A stretch of DNA of 64,000 nt from Promethearchaeota archaeon (lineage in GTDB: Archaea; Asgardarchaeota; Lokiarchaeia; Sigyniarchaeales; SOKP01): the NCBI GenBank assembly GCA_048941015.1, contig JBHLNZ010000005.1, positions 1-64,000 of the forward strand, in the 5' to 3' direction. Made by a program: the position numbers and the translations under genes. Below, piece after piece: positions 2,649 to 13,900 of this stretch (the stretch's first letter is position 1; every line of letters starts with the position of its first letter). The notes beneath the pieces were generated by a model that was not told the origin of the DNA, did not search any database, and worked only from the letters and a program-made list of their open reading frames with translations.

Positions 2649-4631
2649 TTATGCAATTTCAATATCCATTTTTTTACGCTCTTCAAGTAAGGTATCCACA
2701 ACAGATGGATCTGCTAAGGTTGTAACATTACCAACATCTGACATTGCCGCGATAGCTTTTAGGATTCGACGCATGATTTTACCACTCCTCGTTTTTGGTA
2801 AATCATCTGCGAATTGAACCACATCTGGCTGAAAAACAGGACCAATTTCTTTTCTTACATGCATTTGTATATCTTTCTTAAGCTCTTTAGTCTTTTCAGC
2901 GCCTTGTATCAGTGTTACAAAAGCCCAGATAGCTTGTCCCTTGATTTTATGAGGAAATGGCGCTACTGCTGCTTCTGCTACTTTTGGATGAGATACAATC
3001 GCACTCTCGACTTCCATTGTACCAATACGATGACCAGATACTTTAATAACATCATCTAATCTTCCCAATATCCAGTAATAGCCATCTTCATCTCGTCGTG
3101 CGCCATCTCCAGTATAATAGTATCCAGGATATCTTTCAAGATAAGTTGATTTAAATCGTTCAGTATCTCCCCATACATCACGTAACATACCCGGCCAGGG
3201 TTGAGCCATTGCAAAATATCCTCCTTCATCCGGTTCAGTGACTTCATCACCTTCCAAATCAAATATCACCGGTTTAATACCTAGAAATGGCATACAACAT
3301 GAACCAGGTTTTGTAGGAGTCGCTGTAGCAATTGGAGTCATAATAAAACCGCCTGTTTCTGTTTGCCAGTAAGTGTCTACTATTGGACAACGCTCTTTAC
3401 CCACTACTCTATGATACCAAGTCCATGCTTCAGGATTAATTGGTTCTCCTACAGTTCCAAGAACTTTTAGTGAACTAAGATCGTGTTTTTTAACAGGATC
3501 ATCTCCATATCTCATAAGAGCACGGATAGCGGTAGGAGCAGTGTAAAAATGAGTTACTTTATGGCGTTCCACAATATCCCAAAATCGATCTACATCAGGA
3601 TATGTTGGAACCCCTTCGAACATCAATGTAGTAGCACCATTTGCCAGTGGACCATAAGTAATATAGGAATGTCCCGTAATCCAACCTATATCCGCAGTAC
3701 AATACCATATATCTCCTTCATGATAATTAAACACGATCCTATGCGTATAAGAAGTGTAAAGAAGATATCCTGCAGTAGTGTGTTTTACTCCTTTTGGTTT
3801 TCCAGTAGTTCCACTAGTATAGAGTATAAAGAGAGTATCTTCTGAATCCATTTGTTCAGGTTCACATTGTTCGCTCATTCCATCAATAAAGTCGTCATAC
3901 CAAATATCTTTATTAGTATGAGGAATTTCTCTACCTGATCGCTTTACAACAATGACATGCTCAATAGTAGGGACATTATCGATAATCTCGATAACATCGG
4001 CCATTTTTGGATAAAATTTTCCTGCTCTTACCGTTTCATCACTAGTAAATAGAAGTCTTGAGTCAGAGTCTTCAATTCTATCTTTAACAGCTTCTTTAGA
4101 GAATCCGCCGAATACAATAGAATGAATTACTCCGATTCTGACACATGCAAGCATAATAATTGCCAATTCTGGAACCATAGGAAGCCAGATTGTTACTCTA
4201 TCACCTTTCTTTAGCCCTAATTTTTTCATACCATTCGCAACTTTACTTACTTCTTTTAATAATTCACTGTAAGTATATGTTTTTACTTGACCTGGAGCAT
4301 CAGCTTCCCAGATTAATGCAATGTTGTTTCCTTTTCCATTCTTTACATGTCTATCGAGACAGTTATATGCAACATTAAGCTTGCCTCCTACAAACCATTT
4401 TCCAGGAAACAAGTCGGTCTTTTCCCATACTTTATCATATTGTTTGAACCAATCGAGTGATTTAGCTTGTTCACCCCAGAATCCTTCCATGTCTTCAATT
4501 GATTTCTTGTAAAGTTTTTGATATTCTTTAAATGACATCCCAGTTTTAGCGAATTTAGAATTAAGTTTGACAGGATCGAACTTACGAGTTTCAGTAAGAA
4601 TACTTTCCATCTTTTTATCTTCTTCTGACAT
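2649..4631 (-). CDS. acs: AMP-forming acetyl-CoA synthetase
   Basis: YTSGTTGKPKG, ADIGWITGHSY, DTYWQTETGG and LPKTRSGKIMRR motifs. Confidence 0.97.
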   Translation of the reverse strand: MSEEDKKMESILTETRKFDPVKLNSKFAKTGMSFKEYQKLYKKSIEDMEGFWGEQAKSLDWFKQYDKVWEKTDLFPGKWFVGGKLNVAYNCLDRHVKNGKGNNIALIWEADAPGQVKTYTYSELLKEVSKVANGMKKLGLKKGDRVTIWLPMVPELAIIMLACVRIGVIHSIVFGGFSKEAVKDRIEDSDSRLLFTSDETVRAGKFYPKMADVIEIIDNVPTIEHVIVVKRSGREIPHTNKDIWYDDFIDGMSEQCEPEQMDSEDTLFILYTSGTTGKPKGVKHTTAGYLLYTSYTHRIVFNYHEGDIWYCTADIGWITGHSYITYGPLANGATTLMFEGVPTYPDVDRFWDIVERHKVTHFYTAPTAIRALMRYGDDPVKKHDLSSLKVLGTVGEPINPEAWTWYHRVVGKERCPIVDTYWQTETGGFIMTPIATATPTKPGSCCMPFLGIKPVIFDLEGDEVTEPDEGGYFAMAQPWPGMLRDVWGDTERFKSTYLERYPGYYYTGDGARRDEDGYYWILGRLDDVIKVSGHRIGTMEVESAIVSHPKVAEAAVAPFPHKIKGQAIWAFVTLIQGAEKTKELKKDIQMHVRKEIGPVFQPDVVQFADDLPKTRSGKIMRRILKAIAAMSDVGNVTTLADPSVVDTLLEERKKMDIEIA

Positions 4632-5009
4632 AATATTTCACATTTTTGAATTTCGAATTTTTGCGATTTACATAAATTTATTTATTAAATAAGTTTTGTT
4701 AATTTTTTAGAGATTTTTATCCAATCCCATTATTTTCAAAGATTTTACTTTCATAAGGACGAATAACTCGTTAAAAAGAAATATCTTGAATTTAATTTAA
4801 ACATTTTATTTATAAATAATATAATATTTCGAGTTATCAACCTTGGATTAATAAATTCAGGTATAAGTGAATTTTTAGATTATAATCGAAATTATTCATA
4901 ATTTCGATAAAAATATTTTTAATTAGTTATTTGGAATTTCAAAAAAAATATATTCTTTAAGATATAAATAATTACAATAAGAACCATGGATCAAGATAGA
5001 TATTAAAAA

Positions 5010-6920
5010 ATGGAAAAAATTAACATAACTGATAAGGATTGGCGTGAAAAATGGAAAGAGAAAGAAATTTCTGTTCAAGAAGCAATAAAAAAAATTATTC
5101 CTGGAAATAGAGTATTTATCGATACGGCATGTTCTGAGCCACAAGCATTAACAGCAGAGTTAATTAAGTCCTCAGAACGCCTTATTGATACAGAATTAAT
5201 CCATTTTTTAACCATCTTCCCTGAAAAGTATTTTAAAGATAAAGCGGAAGATTTATTTAGACATAACGCATTTTTTATTGGAAAAACATTGCGAGAAGAA
5301 ATTAATAAAGGGCAATCTGACTATACTCCTATTTTTGCTAGTGAAATTCCTTCGCTGTTTCTCACTGGAAGAAAAAATTGTGATGTCGCACTTATACAAA
5401 TAACTCCGCCTGATCGTTATGGTTTTTGTTCTTTTGGGATTAATGTTGATGTAGCCAAACCAATTGCTCAATCGACTTTTTTAACTATTGCGGAAATTAA
5501 CCCTCAAATGCCACGGACTTTAGGAAATAGCTTTATACATATGAAAGAAATTGATTATTTTGTTTTTAATGATGTCCCATTATTAGAATTTAATTTTAAA
5601 GAGGGAGATCCTATTATTACTGAAAAAATAGGAAAAAATGTGGCAAATCTTATTGAAAATAAGTCTACAATTCATATTGGTAATGGATATTTACCAAATG
5701 CATGCCTAAAATATTTAATGGATAAAAAGGATCTTGGTATGCATAGCCACTATATTACGGATAATATAATCCCATTAATAGAAAATACAGTTTTAACTTG
5801 TAGAAAAAAAAATTTCCATCCAGAAAAAATCATTACAAGTTTTGCATTAGGCACGAAAAAATTATATGATTTTGTCAATAACAATCCTTACATTGAATTT
5901 TTTCCTTCTGATTATGTATGTAATCCTCGATATATTAGTATGAATAAAAAGATGGTTTCTATAAACCAAGCTTTACAAATAGATTTAACAGGACAAGTAA
6001 ATGCCTCTACAAAAGGTTATAATTTTTATTCAGGAATTGGGGATACTGTAGATTTTATGCGAGGTTCCGCATTTTCAAAAGGAGGGAAACCAATTATAGT
6101 TTTACAATCAACAAAGAAAAATGGAAGTGAATCTACAATTGTGCCTCATTTAGATGAGGGTGCAGGTGTAATATTGTCTCGAGCTGATGTTCATTACGTC
6201 GTTACTGAATGGGGAGTTGCCTATTTGCATGGAAAAACAATAAGAGAACGTGTTATAGAGCTCATTTGTATTGCTCATCCTGATTTTCGAGAAGAATTAT
6301 TAGAACATGCTAAAAGTTTAAATTATATCTATTCAGATCAAAAACTTCCTTGTGATGCTGATGGAAATATATGTATTTATCCAAGCCAGTATGAAACGAT
6401 ATATACAATTCATAACAATGAAAAAATTAGAATTCGTCCTGTAAAGACTACAGATGAACCTTTACTAAAAGAATTATATTATTCTTTAAATGAAAGGGAC
6501 AGATATCTTCGATTTTTTGAGTTGAGAAAAGAATTTACCCATTCAAAAACTCAAAATGAAGTAAATATTGATTATACTAATATCTTTTCAATTGGAGCTT
6601 TTAGAGGAGAAATTGGAAAAGAAGAAATGGTTGGAAATGCTACATATCATTTAAATCCGAAAAATAATATGGCAGAATATAGCTTCCTTGTTAAAGAGGC
6701 TTATAGAGGGAAAGGGATTGGTTCATTTTTATATCACCATCTTATTGTTATTGCTAAGGAAAAAGGAATAAAAGGATTTTATGGTAATATACATATTCAA
6801 AATAAAAGCACTGTCCAAATTATTCGAAAAGGAGGTTTTACAAAAATAACTCCTCCAGAAGCAGGAGAAAAAGAATTATTTTATGAGGTTTTTTTTCATA
6901 AGGAAAACTCAATTGATTAA
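5010..6920 (+). CDS. Acetyl-CoA hydrolase/CoA-transferase-like domain fused to C-terminal Pat-type GNAT acetyltransferase
   Basis: DVALIQITPPD, EINPQMPRT, DLTGQV and VVTEWGVAYLHGK; C-terminal IRPVKTTDE...YLRFF...IDY...AEYSFLV...RGKGIG. Confidence 0.88.
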   Translation: MEKINITDKDWREKWKEKEISVQEAIKKIIPGNRVFIDTACSEPQALTAELIKSSERLIDTELIHFLTIFPEKYFKDKAEDLFRHNAFFIGKTLREEINKGQSDYTPIFASEIPSLFLTGRKNCDVALIQITPPDRYGFCSFGINVDVAKPIAQSTFLTIAEINPQMPRTLGNSFIHMKEIDYFVFNDVPLLEFNFKEGDPIITEKIGKNVANLIENKSTIHIGNGYLPNACLKYLMDKKDLGMHSHYITDNIIPLIENTVLTCRKKNFHPEKIITSFALGTKKLYDFVNNNPYIEFFPSDYVCNPRYISMNKKMVSINQALQIDLTGQVNASTKGYNFYSGIGDTVDFMRGSAFSKGGKPIIVLQSTKKNGSESTIVPHLDEGAGVILSRADVHYVVTEWGVAYLHGKTIRERVIELICIAHPDFREELLEHAKSLNYIYSDQKLPCDADGNICIYPSQYETIYTIHNNEKIRIRPVKTTDEPLLKELYYSLNERDRYLRFFELRKEFTHSKTQNEVNIDYTNIFSIGAFRGEIGKEEMVGNATYHLNPKNNMAEYSFLVKEAYRGKGIGSFLYHHLIVIAKEKGIKGFYGNIHIQNKSTVQIIRKGGFTKITPPEAGEKELFYEVFFHKENSID

Positions 6921-6969: not shown

Positions 6970-7761
6970 ATGAAGTTTAAATACACTGATTATCATATTC
7001 ATACTAAGTGGAGTATAGATATAGCCGATAATGGCCCGGTTTTTGAAGATTATATTAAAAAAGCGGAGGAGTATCGGATAAATATATGCTTTCTTGAGCA
7101 TTATGAGTTGTATTTAATAGAGAGAGATAAATTAAATCCATTTTATAATAATAATATTGATAACTATCTTGAGGAGTTAGATACTTTAAAAGAAAGCTAC
7201 GATTTCATTTATACTGGTTTAGAAGTTGATTATTATAGGGATAGAGAAACTAAATTGTTGGAATTTATGGATGATTATGAAAAAGAATTAGATTTTATTG
7301 CCGGTACAATTCATGAGTGGATACCAGGATATCCTATAACTACCAGAGACAGTTTAATCTTATTTTTAGAAAAGAAACCGATGAAAGATGTTATTGATGA
7401 ATATTTTAAAATTAGTAAAGAAATGATTGAATCAAAAATTTTTAAAAATGTTTGTCATATTGATACTATTTATCGTTATATTAATGAGAATGATATTATA
7501 CCAGAAGAAAATTGTGATATATCCGAAGAAAGGGTGTTGGAATTAGGACGTTTGTGTATAAAGAATAATATAAAAATAGAATATAATTTATCTGGATTAA
7601 AATTTCCAATAAAACGCCCATTTCCTTCAAGGAAAATAACTTTAGAATTAATAAAGGAAGGAGCAAGGTTTTTTGTGGGTTCAGATTCTCATTCGATTGA
7701 ATATTTCGAAAGAATTATTCCTGAAATAAAGAAATCTTATGAATATTTAAATTTAATATAA
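6970..7761 (+). CDS. PHP-family phosphoesterase (histidinol-phosphatase HisK-like)
   Basis: DYHIHT, LEH, GLEVD, CHID and GSDSH metal-binding motifs. Confidence 0.85.
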   Translation: MKFKYTDYHIHTKWSIDIADNGPVFEDYIKKAEEYRINICFLEHYELYLIERDKLNPFYNNNIDNYLEELDTLKESYDFIYTGLEVDYYRDRETKLLEFMDDYEKELDFIAGTIHEWIPGYPITTRDSLILFLEKKPMKDVIDEYFKISKEMIESKIFKNVCHIDTIYRYINENDIIPEENCDISEERVLELGRLCIKNNIKIEYNLSGLKFPIKRPFPSRKITLELIKEGARFFVGSDSHSIEYFERIIPEIKKSYEYLNLI

Positions 7762-7784
7762 GTAAAAATCAATTGAATTAAATA

Positions 7785-8495
7785 ATGGATTCAAAGGAGA
7801 TACTTAATAAAATATCTGAATGGGATAAAAGGATAATTTTAAAGTATAATGGATTTGGTGGACCTAAGTTCACATTATTACTTAAAAGTCTTTCATTTTT
7901 TGGAAGAGAAACAGTTTGGTTACTTTTAATATGGTATTTTTTTTTCATTTGGTATGATCCTATTATCTTTTCTTATCTAACTACAACCTTTTTGGTGGGA
8001 TTGTTAATTATTGCTCCAGTAAAAAAAATTTTTGAAAGACCACGCCCTTTTGAAACATTGAAAGTAATTAAAGTTCTTGAACCTGAACCAACTTCAAGAA
8101 GTTTTCCATCTTGGCATGCTTATAATTTCGTATCTCAAGGTTTTTTAATTATATATCTCCTTAATTCTTTACCTATAACAATAATAATAATTGTTCTTAG
8201 TCTTTTAATTGCTTTTTCTCGTATTCAATTAGGGGTGCATTATCCTAGTGATGTCATCATTGGTTATTTTATTGGTATTATAGGGTTTCTTTTATCGATA
8301 GGAATACTTTCAAATCTATTTTTAAGAGTAGTAAAATCTATAGAAATGCTAATTGGAATTGAAATGTATTATCGAACATTAAATATTTATTTATTTGAAA
8401 ACATAGGGTATTTAATTCTAAGTATAAGCATATTTATTTTAATAATTTTAATTGCTTCTTATAAGAGAATTAAAGAAAGAGTTAATAAATTATAA
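7785..8495 (+). CDS. PAP2-family membrane phosphatase
   Basis: KxxxxRPRP, SFPSWH and SRIQLGVHYPSDV motifs. Confidence 0.92.
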   Translation: MDSKEILNKISEWDKRIILKYNGFGGPKFTLLLKSLSFFGRETVWLLLIWYFFFIWYDPIIFSYLTTTFLVGLLIIAPVKKIFERPRPFETLKVIKVLEPEPTSRSFPSWHAYNFVSQGFLIIYLLNSLPITIIIIVLSLLIAFSRIQLGVHYPSDVIIGYFIGIIGFLLSIGILSNLFLRVVKSIEMLIGIEMYYRTLNIYLFENIGYLILSISIFILIILIASYKRIKERVNKL

Positions 8496-8508
8496 TGCTA
8501 TCTTGTTT

Positions 8509-9759
8509 TTAGAGATTTAACTTTTTTTTTTTATCAAATAATCGCTTTAACTCATCTAAAACCTGCATTCGAGAATCGCCACTACGAGATCCTAACCTTT
8601 GTTGGTTAGGATTTTGAATTTCAATAGGAATTCCACTTTGGGCTACTTGAAATGCTCCACTTTCAATTGCTCTTAATCTTGTGTCTATATCATTAAGTTG
8701 TTTAGATATACTTTCAGAGAGGCGTATAACAGCATTCATAGTTTCTTCTAAGGTTTTGCCCAATCCCTCAACTTTTCGAAGGGTTGGATTTGTTAGAGAA
8801 TCTATTGATTTCATTGCTTCCTTAATATACTTTGAAAATTGAGGTTCATTCGAAATTAATGAATAAATTGAAGTAAGATATGCTTCATAATCAAAACCAT
8901 ATTGAGTCAGTAGCGTATTTAAATTTTCTTTTAAGAGTTCAATATTAAGGAGTATTTCAGGATCTGCTTTCAGATCTGGATCATATTTGTGAATATAAAT
9001 TAGAATAAACGGATTTTCTTCTAAAATTTTTAATATCTCTAAGATTTCTTCAAAATATTCAAAAGATTCTGCATATCTTTCCGAATCTTGAACATCAATA
9101 ACATAAATCAATAAATCTAACTGTAAGAAAAACTTTTCTGGATTTTCAATATATTGATTCCGATATTTTAATTGTCCTCCCATATCCCAAATAAATAGAT
9201 CTAACTCTGAATCTTCCGTTTTGATGTAATGTCGCTCTACACCCTTGGTCGGTTTTAGTGTTGCTAAGTCTGCTATTCCTAACTTTCCTCCGAATTTTGT
9301 TAAGATAGCTGTTTTTCCTGCGTTATCTAATCCAACTACTACAACTTTTTGTGCTGTTTTTTCAAATCCAGTTTGATCTTCTTTTATAGTAGCTATAATT
9401 GAACTGATAGTAATTGCTTTTTTTAAATTTCTTTCTAAATCAGGATTTTGTTTTACTAAAGTTTCTAATTTCTCATATAATTTCTCTTGTACTTCTGCTG
9501 CTTTTATTGGATCTTTAGTAGATTCAATGTTCTCTAATCTTTCAAAAGGACTTTCTTTATCTAATTTAGACGCTTCTTCTATATTAGAAACATCTAATAA
9601 TTCTTTTAATATTTTTGCTTCACTTTTTTCTAAAAATTTGTATGAGTATATTGGAAGTTTTAACACATCTTCTATTTGCTTCAAGTTTTTAACTTTGACT
9701 ACGTTTGAGTCTAAAAATTTAGAAATAATATTGATAATGTTAGTTATATTCGTTGACAT
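8509..9759 (-). CDS. Rag/Arf-like small GTPase with ~135-aa N-terminal domain and C-terminal coiled coil
   Basis: G1 GLDNAGKT, G2 PTKG, G3 WDMGGQ, G4 HKYD, G5 TSIY. Confidence 0.88.
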   Translation of the reverse strand: MSTNITNIINIISKFLDSNVVKVKNLKQIEDVLKLPIYSYKFLEKSEAKILKELLDVSNIEEASKLDKESPFERLENIESTKDPIKAAEVQEKLYEKLETLVKQNPDLERNLKKAITISSIIATIKEDQTGFEKTAQKVVVVGLDNAGKTAILTKFGGKLGIADLATLKPTKGVERHYIKTEDSELDLFIWDMGGQLKYRNQYIENPEKFFLQLDLLIYVIDVQDSERYAESFEYFEEILEILKILEENPFILIYIHKYDPDLKADPEILLNIELLKENLNTLLTQYGFDYEAYLTSIYSLISNEPQFSKYIKEAMKSIDSLTNPTLRKVEGLGKTLEETMNAVIRLSESISKQLNDIDTRLRAIESGAFQVAQSGIPIEIQNPNQQRLGSRSGDSRMQVLDELKRLFDKKKKLNL

Positions 9760-9843
9760 TTTAATATTTAATTTAATTTTTTATTATAGTAATAAAATGA
9801 ATTTTATATTATTATTTGTTAATCTTTTAAGATAATAGTTAAA

Positions 9844-9897
9844 TAGATCAAGATTTAAATCTTCACTACTAACATTTAATTAGATCAAAATTTAAAT
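9844..9897. promoter_or_regulatory. 17-bp direct repeat with overlapping 14-bp palindrome in the divergent GTPase/tfb intergenic region
   Basis: TAGATCAAGATTTAAAT (9844-9860) and TAGATCAAAATTTAAAT (9881-9897); AAGATTTAAATCTT palindrome at 9850-9863. Confidence 0.45.
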
Positions 9898-9980
9898 ATA
9901 TAAGTTATTTTAAATAGTATACGAAGAGAAAATAATTCCAATTAGAATCATTAATTTATAATTTAGTTTAAATAGTTTTA

Positions 9981-10901
9981 ATGCCACCAAAATTTGAGGA
10001 AAATGGATTTTTTGACGAGAAGGAGCAAGAATCATGTTGTGATTCACCTAAAATTTCAGAAGAAGACGGCTATTATGTTTGTTTAAATTGTGGTTCAGTT
10101 TATAGCCGAATACTTGATGATTCACCACGTAGGGCTTTCACTCAAGAAGAAATCCAAAAGAGGAAAAGTAATGAACGGGTTTATAGCCCAATCGGACCAC
10201 GAACAATCATTAGAGGGAGTCGTGATGCTCGCGGAACACTTCTAAGTCCAAAGTATAAATCAAAATTTAATAGATTAGCTAAAATTCATAGATCTCTTAC
10301 TACTAGTTATGAAAGAAATTTATGGATAGCTTTACCAAATTTACAGAGACTACAGAAAAGATTGGGCATCCCTGATACAGTAGCAGAAGATGCTCTTAGA
10401 ATTTATACGCAAACAGTCAAGAAAAAATTAACTATGGGAAGAAGTATTGATACTTTACTGTCTGCATCGATATTTTGTGCTCTCAGAGTGCATGGAATAC
10501 CTCGTACTGTAGAGGAGATAACTAAAGTTGCGCAAATTCCAAAAAAGAAAGTTATAAAAAGTTATCGCCTTATTCTAATGGAAGTTTTACCTAATTTAAA
10601 TCTGAAAGTAAAACATTTCAGTCCAGATCGTTACGTTGATAAATTTAATGATGAATTAAGGCTTTCAATGCAGTGCAGAAATATTGCAGTTAAATTGATT
10701 GAGACTGCGAAAGAAAATGGATTTAATTCCGCTGGAAAGGATCCAAAAGGGATTGCTGCTGCTGCTATTTATATTGGTTCAAAAATTTGTAATGAAAACC
10801 GCACTCAAAAAGAAATAAGTAAATTAGCAAGAGTAACAGAAGTTACTTTGAGAATGAGAGTAAAAGATTTACAAAAGTTTGCTAATATGGTAAAACTCTA
10901 A
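9981..10901 (+). CDS. tfb: Transcription initiation factor IIB
   Basis: Zn ribbon (CC...CLNCG) and two cyclin repeats (GRSIDT, GKDPKGIAAAAIY, VTEVTLR). Confidence 0.95.
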   Translation: MPPKFEENGFFDEKEQESCCDSPKISEEDGYYVCLNCGSVYSRILDDSPRRAFTQEEIQKRKSNERVYSPIGPRTIIRGSRDARGTLLSPKYKSKFNRLAKIHRSLTTSYERNLWIALPNLQRLQKRLGIPDTVAEDALRIYTQTVKKKLTMGRSIDTLLSASIFCALRVHGIPRTVEEITKVAQIPKKKVIKSYRLILMEVLPNLNLKVKHFSPDRYVDKFNDELRLSMQCRNIAVKLIETAKENGFNSAGKDPKGIAAAAIYIGSKICNENRTQKEISKLARVTEVTLRMRVKDLQKFANMVKL

Positions 10902-10917
10902 AGAAATTAAAAATTTT

Positions 10918-13900
10918 TTAAAATATATTAAGTAATTCTTTCTCTTGATTAAATAAAGGTAAAATTTCTAGTAAAGATCTTATTTTAGATAAATAAATTT
11001 CGTTTTTATGTAATTTTATATCAATAATGAAATTGATACACCTAATATAATAGGTATCTTCAACCAATCTTTTATTTAATCCTAAAGAATTTAAGACTTG
11101 ATTTATATTTGCATTTATTTTTTCAATAGAGACTCCTGCATTCAAAAGAGCTAATCCATGGAGTAAAAGCATAAGAGGACTCATTTGAAAATCTTTTCTT
11201 CGGGACATGGATTCAGCTAATTCAAAGTATTTTTGTCCTGCTTCGCTAAATCTTTGATTTTCAAGTAGATCTAAGACATCTCTATACAAAATTCTCTTCA
11301 ATCGGTTGCGTTTATCAAAAAGATCGTCTTTTTCTCTTCTCACATCTACCATCTGGTTCTGTAAATAAGCATATACTTGTTCCATTTGAATCGAACGGAT
11401 GTTTTCTTCTCCTTTTTCTTTTCTTGATTTTATATCTTTTATATCTAATTCTCCCTTTTCTTCACCAAGAAAAGATTTTAATAAGTCTATCTCTGGATCT
11501 TCTAGAGGTAGTTTTTCAATAAGACTTTTTATTGCAAATTCAATCAAATTATTCATATTGTTTTCCAAGAAAAAGAAAAATTCTTTCATTATTTGAATTT
11601 CTGGTAAATCTTCGAAATCCTTTTTATATTTTTCAAACTTACTTAACTTATCATAGAAAACTGATTTTGCAATTGAAATATCTTCCAATTTTATTTTGAT
11701 TAAACTAGCTATAATTAGACTTATCGCTGCTTGCTTGAAAAATCTTTTATCTAGGAGAGGATTAATCGTATCTAAATAATCAGTTGCAGCAATTAATAAT
11801 TTTTTATTTGATAAATCTTCTAATGCTAATCGCCAATATTGATTTCTCATTAATTTTCTCTTAGCGATATCTTGCTTCTCTTTCCGAATCTGTGCTGTTA
11901 GTTCTTTGAGTCGTTCTTTGATTTTTTCAACGTCGATAAGATCTTGTTGTTTAGTTTTATCTTTATAAACTTTACCGATAAAATCATATAAAATTTTAAC
12001 TTCTTCTTCAAAAAGTGGTAAATTCTCATAAAATAATAGAGATTCTTTAAATTTAATATCATCTTGAAATTCTTTTACATCAAGAATATATTCTATTAAA
12101 GTAACTGGAAATGTTTCTGAAAAAGATTGACCTAAACCAGATAACTCATTTTTTAATCTATTCAATAAATTGTTTACTTCATCAATTTTATTTTGAGTAA
12201 ATAAAATCAATGATATAATAGCTAATGATACTCCAGCTAAATTGTAATTTTGAATTTTAATTAGGCGATCAATAGTCTCTCGATATTTTATTAAAGCCTG
12301 CTCAAATTCATTTTTTGATAACAAATCTAATGGTACTGCAAAATAAGCCCTCTTTAAAGCTTTTCTTTGCCTCATCTCATTTTCCTTGTCATGAAGAGCA
12401 TCTCTAGCTCTTTTTTGAATAATTGAAAGTTTTTCTTTAAGTATTTCACTTTTATAAGACTCTTTCACTTTTTTTGTTTCAGCTTCCATCTTAGTTGCTT
12501 CTGTTTTAGTAATAATTTTATGTAATTCTGTTTGGATCCATTTATCCTCTATTTTATCATTGATTGAGTGAGCAGCAGATAAATCATTTAAGGAAACATA
12601 TATTTCTGTTATTTTTTTATAAATTTTATCTACGTTTAGTTTTTCTTTTTCAAGATAAGCTGATGAGATATCAATTGCTTTTTTAATAAGATTCATTGCC
12701 TTTTCTATTCCTTGCTCATCTTCTCTGAAATTGACTACTCTAAGAGCTTCTTCTTTTATCACTTCTATGTAAAGTTCACTAAGCTCCTTAGATTGTTCAT
12801 ATAACATTTGATCTCTATAAATTCTAGTTGCATTAGCAAAGGATTTTTGATTTTTATTAAAATTTTCTTCTTCTCTTAAACTCTTTAGCATTCTAATAAA
12901 AATAGGGAATTTTTTTTCCAGATAGATTTTTTTAGTTCCTTCCGTTAGATCAAAATAAAGTGAGAAAAAATCATCAAATTTTTTACCAACCAATAAAATA
13001 TCAAGAGCTTTTGTAAGTAGTTGGTTTTGATCTTCATATTTTCCGATGTTTTTTAAGAAATCGGCTTGGATTTTTATCCTATCTGCTGCTTTCAAATAAT
13101 CTTTATTTTCAATTAATATATTTGCCTCATTAATTATCTTAGTATTGATTTCAGTAATAATGGTTTGCTCTTTCTCCATAAAATCGTGTATTATACTAAC
13201 ACCTTTCTCGATATTTTCAGAGATTTCTTTCTTTCTTAATTCTTTACCTTTTTCTTCTGTAATTAGGCTTTCTTTCGTTAGTTTCTTTTTCAGAGATAAT
13301 GAGTTTAATTTATTAATTAAATTGGAAGCCATTCCAAAATTGTAAATCTCCAAAAAGAGTTTAATCAATTTTGAGAGCAATTTATCTAAATCTCTTTTTT
13401 TAACTCCGTAGGATTCCCAGAGATTTTCAATCTCATCATAAGTTTGTCTAGCAGCATACTTTTCTCCCTCATTAATCTGAATTTCTAATATTTTTATTAA
13501 AACATCAACTAGTTTAGGTGTAAATTTATCGATAATTTCAAATAATCCTTCCTTTTGATAAACTGCTATCGATTGATATAACTGATCTTTAGCACTATTA
13601 TAGTTTTCTATATTGATAAGATAGTCTATAGCGGCTAAAATTTTATCGGAAATTTCTTGTAAAATTATAAGAACTGCTTCGTGAGGTAAGCTATATACAA
13701 CTTGAAATGCTTTTTGAATATTGCAAGCAGATACCCAAGCATTAATTGAATTCCTAAATGCTTGATTTCTTATATTATGATCTCTTAATTCTATTGCTGC
13801 AAATTGAGCAGCAGCTAAATATTGCTCAGCTGCTTGATCATATAATTTTTTATTAAATAAGCGATTTCCTTCAGAAATCATATGCGCTACATGTAACTTT

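Follow-up and report, generated by a model that had tools for sequence, protein, structure and literature searches.

We report here a fusion gene from an Asgard archaeon that encodes a CoA-transferase-fold domain, apparently disabled by replacement of its catalytic residues, followed by a linker and a Pat-type GNAT acetyltransferase domain. The gene (positions 5010 to 6920, + strand; 636 amino acids plus stop) is transcribed divergently from acs, the gene for an AMP-forming acetyl-CoA synthetase (Acs), and lies 378 bp from it. Both genes are located in a stretch of 64,000 nucleotides of Promethearchaeota DNA (contig JBHLNZ010000005.1 of assembly GCA_048941015.1, positions 1 to 64,000), which we call the window. 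We propose that the fusion protein is an acetyltransferase of the Pat kind that acts on Acs and is regulated by its pseudo-transferase domain, a reading to which we assign a probability of roughly 0.6.

In the proposed mechanism, the C-terminal GNAT domain would be the catalyst, acting as an N-epsilon-lysine acetyltransferase. Its most likely substrate would be Lys618 of the divergently encoded Acs; acetylation would inactivate Acs and stop acetate activation, and one of the four sirtuins of the genome would reverse the modification. The N-terminal domain would be an accessory module that most likely binds a CoA-type metabolite in its remodelled former active site, and/or builds an oligomer and a docking surface for Acs, and either way it would set the activity of the GNAT. 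PatZ, with its catalytically dead ACD-like domain, offers a parallel. We infer three things from the observations that follow: that Acs is the substrate, what kind of ligand is bound, and that the control is allosteric.

Results

Replaced catalytic residues in the CoA-transferase-fold domain

Pfam matches divide the fusion protein into AcetylCoA_hydro (PF02550, residues 11-190, E 7e-29), AcetylCoA_hyd_C (PF13336, residues 281-434, E 2e-62) and a GNAT domain at about residues 473-611, the first two together corresponding to the two-lobed alpha/beta fold of CoA-transferases. Residues 10-440 (5037-6329, +) form a 4-hydroxybutyrate-CoA-transferase-fold domain, and the solved 4-hydroxybutyrate CoA-transferases 9vag, 3eh7 and 2oas align with the fusion at E values of 1e-95 to 1e-112. 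An AlphaFold2 model of the fusion, computed from an alignment of 76 fusion sequences, had a mean pLDDT (predicted local distance difference test) of 91.5 and a pTM (predicted template modelling score) of 0.89. In Foldseek searches the N-terminal 440 residues of this predicted model matched 3gk7 and 2oas with target-normalized TM scores of 0.92-0.95 and root-mean-square deviations of 1.5-2.0 Å. The score against the curated equivalog TIGR03948 was 258.6 bits, below the cut-off of 674.8.

Residue-by-residue alignment to 9vag, 3eh7 and 2oas revealed changes in three active-site motifs. The catalytic motif LG(V/I)HTEM reads LGMHSHY in the fusion (5733-5753), SG(F/T/V)GGQ reads SGIGDT (6030-6047) and QMGIG reads HIGNG (5673-5687). 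An earlier sequence-only reading of the window had named the same three motifs, and the solved structures bear it out; its coordinates were right as well, except that LGMHSHY had been extended to 5760, which is 7 nucleotides too long.

To place the catalytic residues we used Escherichia coli ScpC, to which the fusion profile aligned in hhalign with a probability of 99.6%, and the spacing of residues in AarC. A phmmer search with a 55-residue fragment did not reach AarC, and the transfer is made through the spacing of ScpC E286/N339/G380, which equals that of AarC E294/N347/G388. In this alignment His247 of the fusion (codon 5748-5750, +) falls on Glu286 of ScpC, Cys304 (5919-5921, +) on Asn339 and Asp345 (6042-6044, +), at the second glycine of GxGG, on Gly380. 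His247 also falls on the corresponding Glu of 9vag, 3eh7 and 2oas and occupies the position of RipA Glu249. In AarC, Glu294 is the nucleophile and the CoA sulfur lies 2.9 Å from it; Asn347 forms the internal oxyanion hole and buttresses the Glu; and the amide of Gly388 forms the external oxyanion hole, strictly conserved across class I enzymes (PMC4876117). A fourth replacement, His222 for the Gln of QxGIG (5673-5675, +), lies in a loop beside the active site, and the equivalent G-V227-G loop of RipA adjoins the catalytic Glu (PMC3180442). Because His247, Cys304 and Asp345 occupy the Glu, Asn and Gly positions, this mapping indicates that all three class I catalytic elements are gone from the N-terminal domain, and not the Glu alone. 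The earlier claim of a transferase disabled by loss of its Glu is thus both confirmed and extended.

We then set 121 close orthologues of the fusion against 85 intact members of the family. The intact enzymes have the Gln of QxGIG in 91% of cases, the internal oxyanion-hole Asn in 91% and, by selection of the set, the external oxyanion-hole Gly in 100%; among stand-alone representatives, 58 of 60 have GG. Of the 100 positions with at least 75% conservation in the intact enzymes, 88 are retained in the orthologues. The changed positions are T159, an inserted F196, N217, K218, H222, H247, C304, D/E345 and T346, together with three N-terminal gap columns, and they fall mostly in active-site motifs.

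Constraint on the disabled domain

The 121 orthologues are 73-97% identical. Position 304 is Cys in all 121, position 222 is His in 120, and position 345 always carries an acidic residue, Asp in 64 cases and Glu in the other 57. Position 247 is His in 115, with Tyr in four, Leu in one and Phe in one. As the combination H222/H245/H247/C304/(D or E)345 recurs in 114 of the 121, the motif changes are not due to chance or sequencing error.

Conservation of the transferase-fold domain matches that of the GNAT: mean pairwise identity is 80% in both, and 33% of positions in the former and 32% in the latter are at least 99% conserved. Nei-Gojobori ratios of nonsynonymous to synonymous substitution rates (dN/dS) were about 0.05 and 0.06, respectively, values that are rough given a median dS of 1.2-1.4, near saturation of synonymous sites. 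The similar conservation and dN/dS of the two domains indicate that the disabled domain is under purifying selection and has a selected function.

Since the replacing residues Cys304, Asp/Glu345 and His222 are invariant or nearly so, the site seems rebuilt and not merely dead. It could even have become reactive: Cys304, with His247, Asp/Glu345, His222 and His245, would then form a new centre at the place of the CoA thiol or thioester. Variants of this idea are an S-acylated Cys304 that senses acyl groups or relays them to the GNAT, a mixed disulfide with CoA that senses redox state or the CoA thiol, and a metal site. Besides the invariance, it is in favour of such a centre that the positions of Cys304, Asp/Glu345 and His222 lie, in AarC, only a few angstroms from the thioester that reacts (PMC4876117), that Cys at position 304 recurs in 16 other family representatives, and that a myxococcal relative carries a 4Fe-4S domain (see below). 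An essential triad or metal ligand is hard to square, however, with Tyr, Phe or Leu in place of His247 in 6 of the 121 orthologues, and Asp and Glu alternate freely at 345, while the sister sequence P0123 has Phe247 and Ser304. We therefore regard a rebuilt, reactive site as rather unlikely. A catalytic Cys-His-Asp triad was also considered as the principal explanation and was marked down on account of the same six replacements at position 247.

A carboxylate is invariably present at position 345, beside the former nucleophile position, and it might have taken over as the nucleophile, leaving the domain a CoA-transferase or acyl-CoA hydrolase. In this chemistry, however, the nucleophile is sensitive to side-chain length, and the ratio of Asp to Glu at 345 is about 1:1. 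Transferase activity is lost in Glu-to-Asp mutants of class I enzymes, which also counts against a migrated nucleophile. Moreover, position 345 replaces a strictly conserved backbone-amide oxyanion hole (PMC4876117), and the Asn of the internal oxyanion hole is lost too. A migrated carboxylate is thus very improbable, and we retain the reading of a transferase-fold domain that no longer catalyzes its original reaction.

A Pat-type GNAT domain

The GNAT domain spans residues 471-615 (6420-6854, +). Its best solved relatives in phmmer searches are all Pat proteins: E. coli PatZ (9it0, E 6e-17; also 9isq), Streptomyces lividans PatA (4nxy, E 2.5e-14; also 4u5y), Sulfolobus Pat (3f8k, E 3e-8) and Mycobacterium Pat (4orf, E 3e-6). 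Glu556 (codon 6675-6677) aligns with the catalytic Glu809 of PatZ, and the acetyl-CoA loop RGKGIG, which fits the P-loop pattern R/Q-x-x-G-x-G/A, is found at residues 566-571 (6705-6722). In Foldseek the closest match of the predicted GNAT was 4u5y_A (target TM score 0.91), the S. lividans Pat GNAT crystallized with the Acs C-terminal domain, and the C-terminal part of the fusion model also matched PatZ. The domain looks like a competent Pat-type GNAT, in agreement with the sequence-only reading, which had called it Pat-like. The genome encodes only two Pat-type GNATs, both fused to a CoA-transferase fold.

The N-terminal part does not correspond to the regulatory domains of known multidomain Pats. 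In a Pfam scan of the fusion no ACD-type family, as in type I and type II Pats, was matched, and in Pfam and NCBIfam scans there was no cyclic nucleotide-, ACT- or NADP-binding sensor domain, as in type III Pats. The profile of mycobacterial Pat (NF058543) matched only the GNAT, with 46 bits where the cut-off is 460.

Acs and its lysine motif

The acs gene (2649-4631, - strand) encodes a 660-residue AMP-forming acetyl-CoA synthetase, the presumed acetyltransferase substrate. Its scores of 985 bits against NF001208 and 951 bits against TIGR02188 exceed the respective cut-offs of 657 and 725, and it has the Pfam domains ACAS_N, AMP-binding and AMP-binding_C. Of the roughly 15 AMP-binding paralogues in the genome it alone is a true Acs, the next one being 31% identical. 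The motif PKTRSGK lies at residues 612-618 (2778-2798, -), with the Lys618 codon at 2778-2780. This lysine is catalytically essential in all AMP-forming ligases, and because it is universal it is uninformative on regulation. The motif that the sequence-only reading had pointed out is therefore present, but its presence says nothing about control by acetylation. In other organisms the lysine is the known target of Pat and sirtuin (PMC8556138, PMC12184503).

Four SIR2-family genes are present in the genome. One of them (G000:C106, 7387-7920, +) adjoins two genes for AMP-binding acyl-CoA ligases (8661-10208, -, and 10517-12067, -; the second with an in-frame TAA), so that G000:C106:7387-12067 may be a second ligase locus controlled by acylation. 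Another AMP-binding ligase paralogue of the same genome (G000:C31:29850-31292) contains one in-frame TAG and could be a pseudogene or be read through.

Linkage of the GNAT to acs

Among 51 orthologous loci from public Asgard metagenome-assembled genomes, 41 had enough flanking sequence to be judged. In 38 of these 41 acs lies beside the fusion, a count that overstates independence because all loci seem to come from one GTDB family with a conserved neighbourhood. The gene is upstream and divergent in 36 loci, with a gap of less than 500 bp in 22 of them, and downstream in two; three loci have no acs. In the window the two genes are separated by an AT-rich divergent intergenic region of 378 bp (4632-5009). 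The four most divergent orthologues (L045, L046, L048 and L058) have lost the other conserved neighbours, PHP-PAP2-GTPase-tfb, and kept acs, in two arrangements; acs is arranged differently in two of the four.

Two species of a sister genus have lost the transferase domain by deletion. A remnant open reading frame of 40 N-terminal residues is followed there by an intact GNAT reading frame of 175 or 193 residues, which starts at the end of the linker of the window protein (L079:7377-7958, -, and L080:7110-7637, +, from G147:C2 and G129:C196). These two GNATs are 95% identical with a dN/dS of 0.13, retain the catalytic Glu and the P-loop, and still face acs divergently across a gap of about 150 bp. 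Because the deletion variant keeps its GNAT facing acs, we regard GNAT and acs as the core pair and the transferase domain as accessory.

Fusions with an intact Glu/Asn/GG site also occur beside full-length acs, in family f7 (6/6 loci of one paralogue) and in family f16 (one locus; L081-L087 in total for both families). In f7 the fusion is divergent from a unit of an acetate-channel gene (PF01184, GPR1/FUN34/YaaH) and acs; in L084 the channel gene, at 10426-11007, lies between fusion and acs. In L081 genes for an MFS transporter and an ARPP-1 domain protein are located between the two. A maximum-likelihood tree placed the three acs-linked fusion groups in three separately supported clades. Since intact-site Asgard fusions adjoin acs too, the link to acs is independent of the domain being dead, and we rejected the idea that adjacency to acs is specific to the disabled clade. 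No acs was found within the flanks read of the genome's intact paralogue and its orthologues, a second f7 paralogue, family f22 and four metagenomic fusions.

Overall, GNAT and acs form a persistent pair to which the transferase-fold domain is an accessory that may be intact, disabled or absent. The synteny with acs, proposed earlier as a check, holds in most of the informative orthologous loci, in three fusion clades and in the GNAT-only variant, and the gene neighbourhood makes a functional link of the fusion to acs well supported.

It is conceivable that the substrate of the GNAT is not Acs and that the adjacency to acs reflects shared acetyl-CoA metabolism only. The GNAT would then modify a small molecule or other proteins, such as the approximately 14 other AMP-forming ligases of the genome or, as with Sulfolobus Pat, chromatin proteins. 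Promiscuity is common among Pat enzymes (PMC12184503), candidate ligases are available in the roughly 14 other AMP-binding paralogues, and neither the intact paralogue nor six other fusions lie near acs. Yet three separate fusion clades show the linkage, which persists even where the N-terminal domain is deleted, and the closest GNAT fold is the one crystallized with the Acs C-terminal domain. We consider a substrate other than Acs quite unlikely.

The persistence of a GNAT-only version beside acs in the sister genus also fits a purely structural role, in which the N-terminal domain binds no small molecule and serves only for oligomerization and as part of the surface on which Acs docks. Oligomer formation is obligate in 4-hydroxybutyrate CoA-transferases, with RipA forming dimers and tetramers (PMC3180442), and the regulatory domain of PatZ shapes the Acs-binding pocket (PMC12184503). 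A pure scaffold leaves unexplained, however, why replaced active-site residues are invariant amid variable flanks and why 88 of 100 conserved family positions are kept, and we judge it improbable.

The wider family of CoA-transferase-GNAT fusions

A search of 1.84 billion cluster representatives yielded 72 full-length fusions among the best 150 matches, and the CoA-transferase-GNAT fusion is thus widespread. Among these 72, position 247 is Glu in 42, Asp in 14 and another residue in 16, so that Glu is lost in 30. GG is kept in 37 and lost in 35, compared with a loss in only 2 of 60 stand-alone enzymes, and the distribution of Glu loss across the fusion tree requires many independent events. 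Such frequent degeneration of the active site would be expected of a fused domain whose main role is sensing or regulation.

The window clade, together with a relative that has Phe247 and Asp345, is sister to intact-site Asgard paralogues (support 97-99). One such paralogue is encoded in the same genome (G000:C32:27460-30930; L001:910-2823, -). It has 637 residues, is 51% identical to the window protein and retains QMGIG, HSE and SGIGGQ; its neighbours are HhH-GPD, photolyase and genes of unknown function, with no acs. Judging from its intact motifs this paralogue could be bifunctional, and it provides a natural control for the disabled copy.

Two further groups were observed. A metagenome-assembled genome of Myxococcales (L073:6001-8883; P0129/P0277) encodes fusions of 960-1067 residues in which Gln replaces the Glu and a 4Fe-4S ferredoxin-type domain is added at the N terminus, a hint that part of the family may receive redox input. 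A stand-alone clade of about 430 residues (P0222-P0269) has Gly at the position of the nucleophile Glu, His at that of the internal oxyanion-hole Asn, and an intact GG. Either a catalytic residue has moved in this clade or it may represent another non-transferase lineage.

A broader proposal would cover the family as a whole: CoA-transferase-GNAT fusions would be undescribed, widespread, metabolite-gated protein acyltransferases. In intact members the reaction of enzyme and acetyl-CoA to enzyme-CoA and acetate, and its reverse, would be a readout of the acetyl-CoA/acetate ratio and would gate the acetylation of Acs. In the window clade the sensor would have been rebuilt around Cys304 with the adjacent His and Asp/Glu as a thiol switch (S-acyl, CoA-disulfide or metal). 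Taken jointly, these three points are unlikely to hold; if they do, redox or CoA status would be coupled to acetate activation in Asgard archaea.

Genome setting and neighbouring genes

The host is a low-GC (about 29%) Asgard archaeon, with TFB and an Arf/Rag-like GTPase encoded in the window; close homologues carry the database labels Promethearchaeota or Hodarchaeota. A gene for a PHP/HisJ-family phosphoesterase (6970-7761, +), identified by profile matches and neighbourhood, begins 49 bp past the stop codon of the fusion gene. It opens a series (6970-10901) that continues with a PAP2 phosphatase, the Arf/Rag-like GTPase on the opposite strand and tfb, an order kept in most orthologous loci. 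The PHP gene is absent beside the four most divergent orthologues, which retain acs, and it is probably a conserved neighbour and not part of the acs-fusion system. On the other side of acs the window contains a gene for a corrinoid protein of the pyl_corrinoid type (427-1077, -).

Discussion

Several observations weigh against the proposed Acs-directed acetyltransferase and its pseudo-transferase regulatory domain. The disabled clade is confined to one GTDB family, within which the neighbourhood acs-fusion-PHP-PAP2-GTPase-tfb is conserved as a whole, and six other fusions examined do not adjoin acs. The universality of the Acs lysine provides no argument for regulation. The invariance of Cys304 and Asp/Glu345 points to something beyond a passive loss of activity. 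Finally, a side chain at the oxyanion-hole Gly may hinder thioester binding, and for this reason the ligand may not be an acyl-CoA. An acyl-CoA, as put forward in the sequence-only reading, is the natural guess for the sensed molecule, and live alternatives are a metal, a redox signal, free CoA and a covalent adduct on Cys; by mapping onto AarC, the invariant Cys304 would sit about where the CoA sulfur lies (PMC4876117).

Asgard archaea of this kind ferment to acetate or take acetate up, and reversible acetylation of Acs by Pat is a model case of metabolic control by lysine acetylation. The intact paralogue in the same genome, the disabled copy and the GNAT-only copy of the sister genus constitute a natural comparison set. 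Databases name the fusion only "GNAT family N-acetyltransferase" or "acyl-CoA hydrolase/GNAT", and automatic annotation as an acyl-CoA hydrolase/transferase or a plain GNAT can mislead pathway reconstructions.

In our literature search we found no paper describing a CoA-transferase-GNAT fusion. Current classifications comprise Pat types I-V, none with a regulatory domain of the CoA-transferase fold (PMC8556138, PMC12184503), and according to a 2025 study archaeal Pat homologues are mostly single-domain GNATs (PMC12607858). The pseudo-transferase domain is thus probably an undescribed kind of regulatory domain for the switch-off of Acs by lysine acetylation.

The N-terminal domain resembles 4-hydroxybutyrate/butyryl-CoA:acetate CoA-transferases (AbfT 3gk7, 2oas and 9vag; Yersinia RipA, 3qli), with 32-40% identity over about 430 residues. 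Unlike these enzymes, the window protein lacks the Glu, the Asn and the GxGG glycine and carries a GNAT. The intact-site fusions (G000:C32, f7, f16 and many bacterial proteins) share its two-domain architecture at 41-54% identity, and some adjoin acs, but they keep Glu, Asn and GG. Their residues would allow a true dual function, or sensing by way of a covalent enzyme-CoA intermediate; we found no experimental characterization of them. Cooperation of a class I CoA-transferase with a GNAT lysine acyltransferase has a precedent in the two-protein route of lysine lactylation in E. coli, formed by the CoA-transferase YdiF and the GNAT YiaC (PMC9636275). Unlike the two domains of the fusion described here, YdiF and YiaC are not joined in one polypeptide; YdiF is an active transferase that provides the acyl-CoA donor, and a link to acs is absent. 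The comparison is relevant chiefly to the intact paralogue, not to the disabled copy.

Type III Pats (Mycobacterium cAMP-Pat, 4avb/4orf; Micromonospora ACT-Pat; Myxococcus NADP-Pat) likewise combine an N-terminal domain with a C-terminal Pat GNAT, and in these proteins an N-terminal ligand sensor and the Pat GNAT control Acs (PMC8556138). The homology of the GNATs is detectable (4orf, E 3e-6), but the putative sensor of the window protein is a pseudo-enzyme of 440 residues and not a cNMP (cyclic nucleotide), ACT or Rossmann domain.

The closest parallel in design is PatZ/SePat (type I; Salmonella enterica and E. coli; 9it0, 9isq), in which a Pat GNAT is likewise fused to a large N-terminal domain that descends from a CoA-thioester enzyme and lacks its catalytic residue. 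The GNATs of the two proteins are homologous (E 6e-17), their catalytic Glu and acetyl-CoA loop align, and Acs is the classical PatZ substrate. In PatZ, acetyl-CoA is bound by the dead ACD-like domain, which also drives the cooperative activation of the GNAT and shapes the Acs pocket (PMC12184503). The N-terminal domain of PatZ is ACD-like and lacks the catalytic His, whereas that of the window protein has a CoA-transferase fold; the latter protein is also shorter (636 versus about 886 residues), archaeal and encoded by a gene directly divergent from acs. If the proposed function holds, the pseudo-transferase domain would add a sixth type of Pat regulatory domain, derived independently from another CoA-thioester enzyme and paralleling the dead ACD domain of PatZ.

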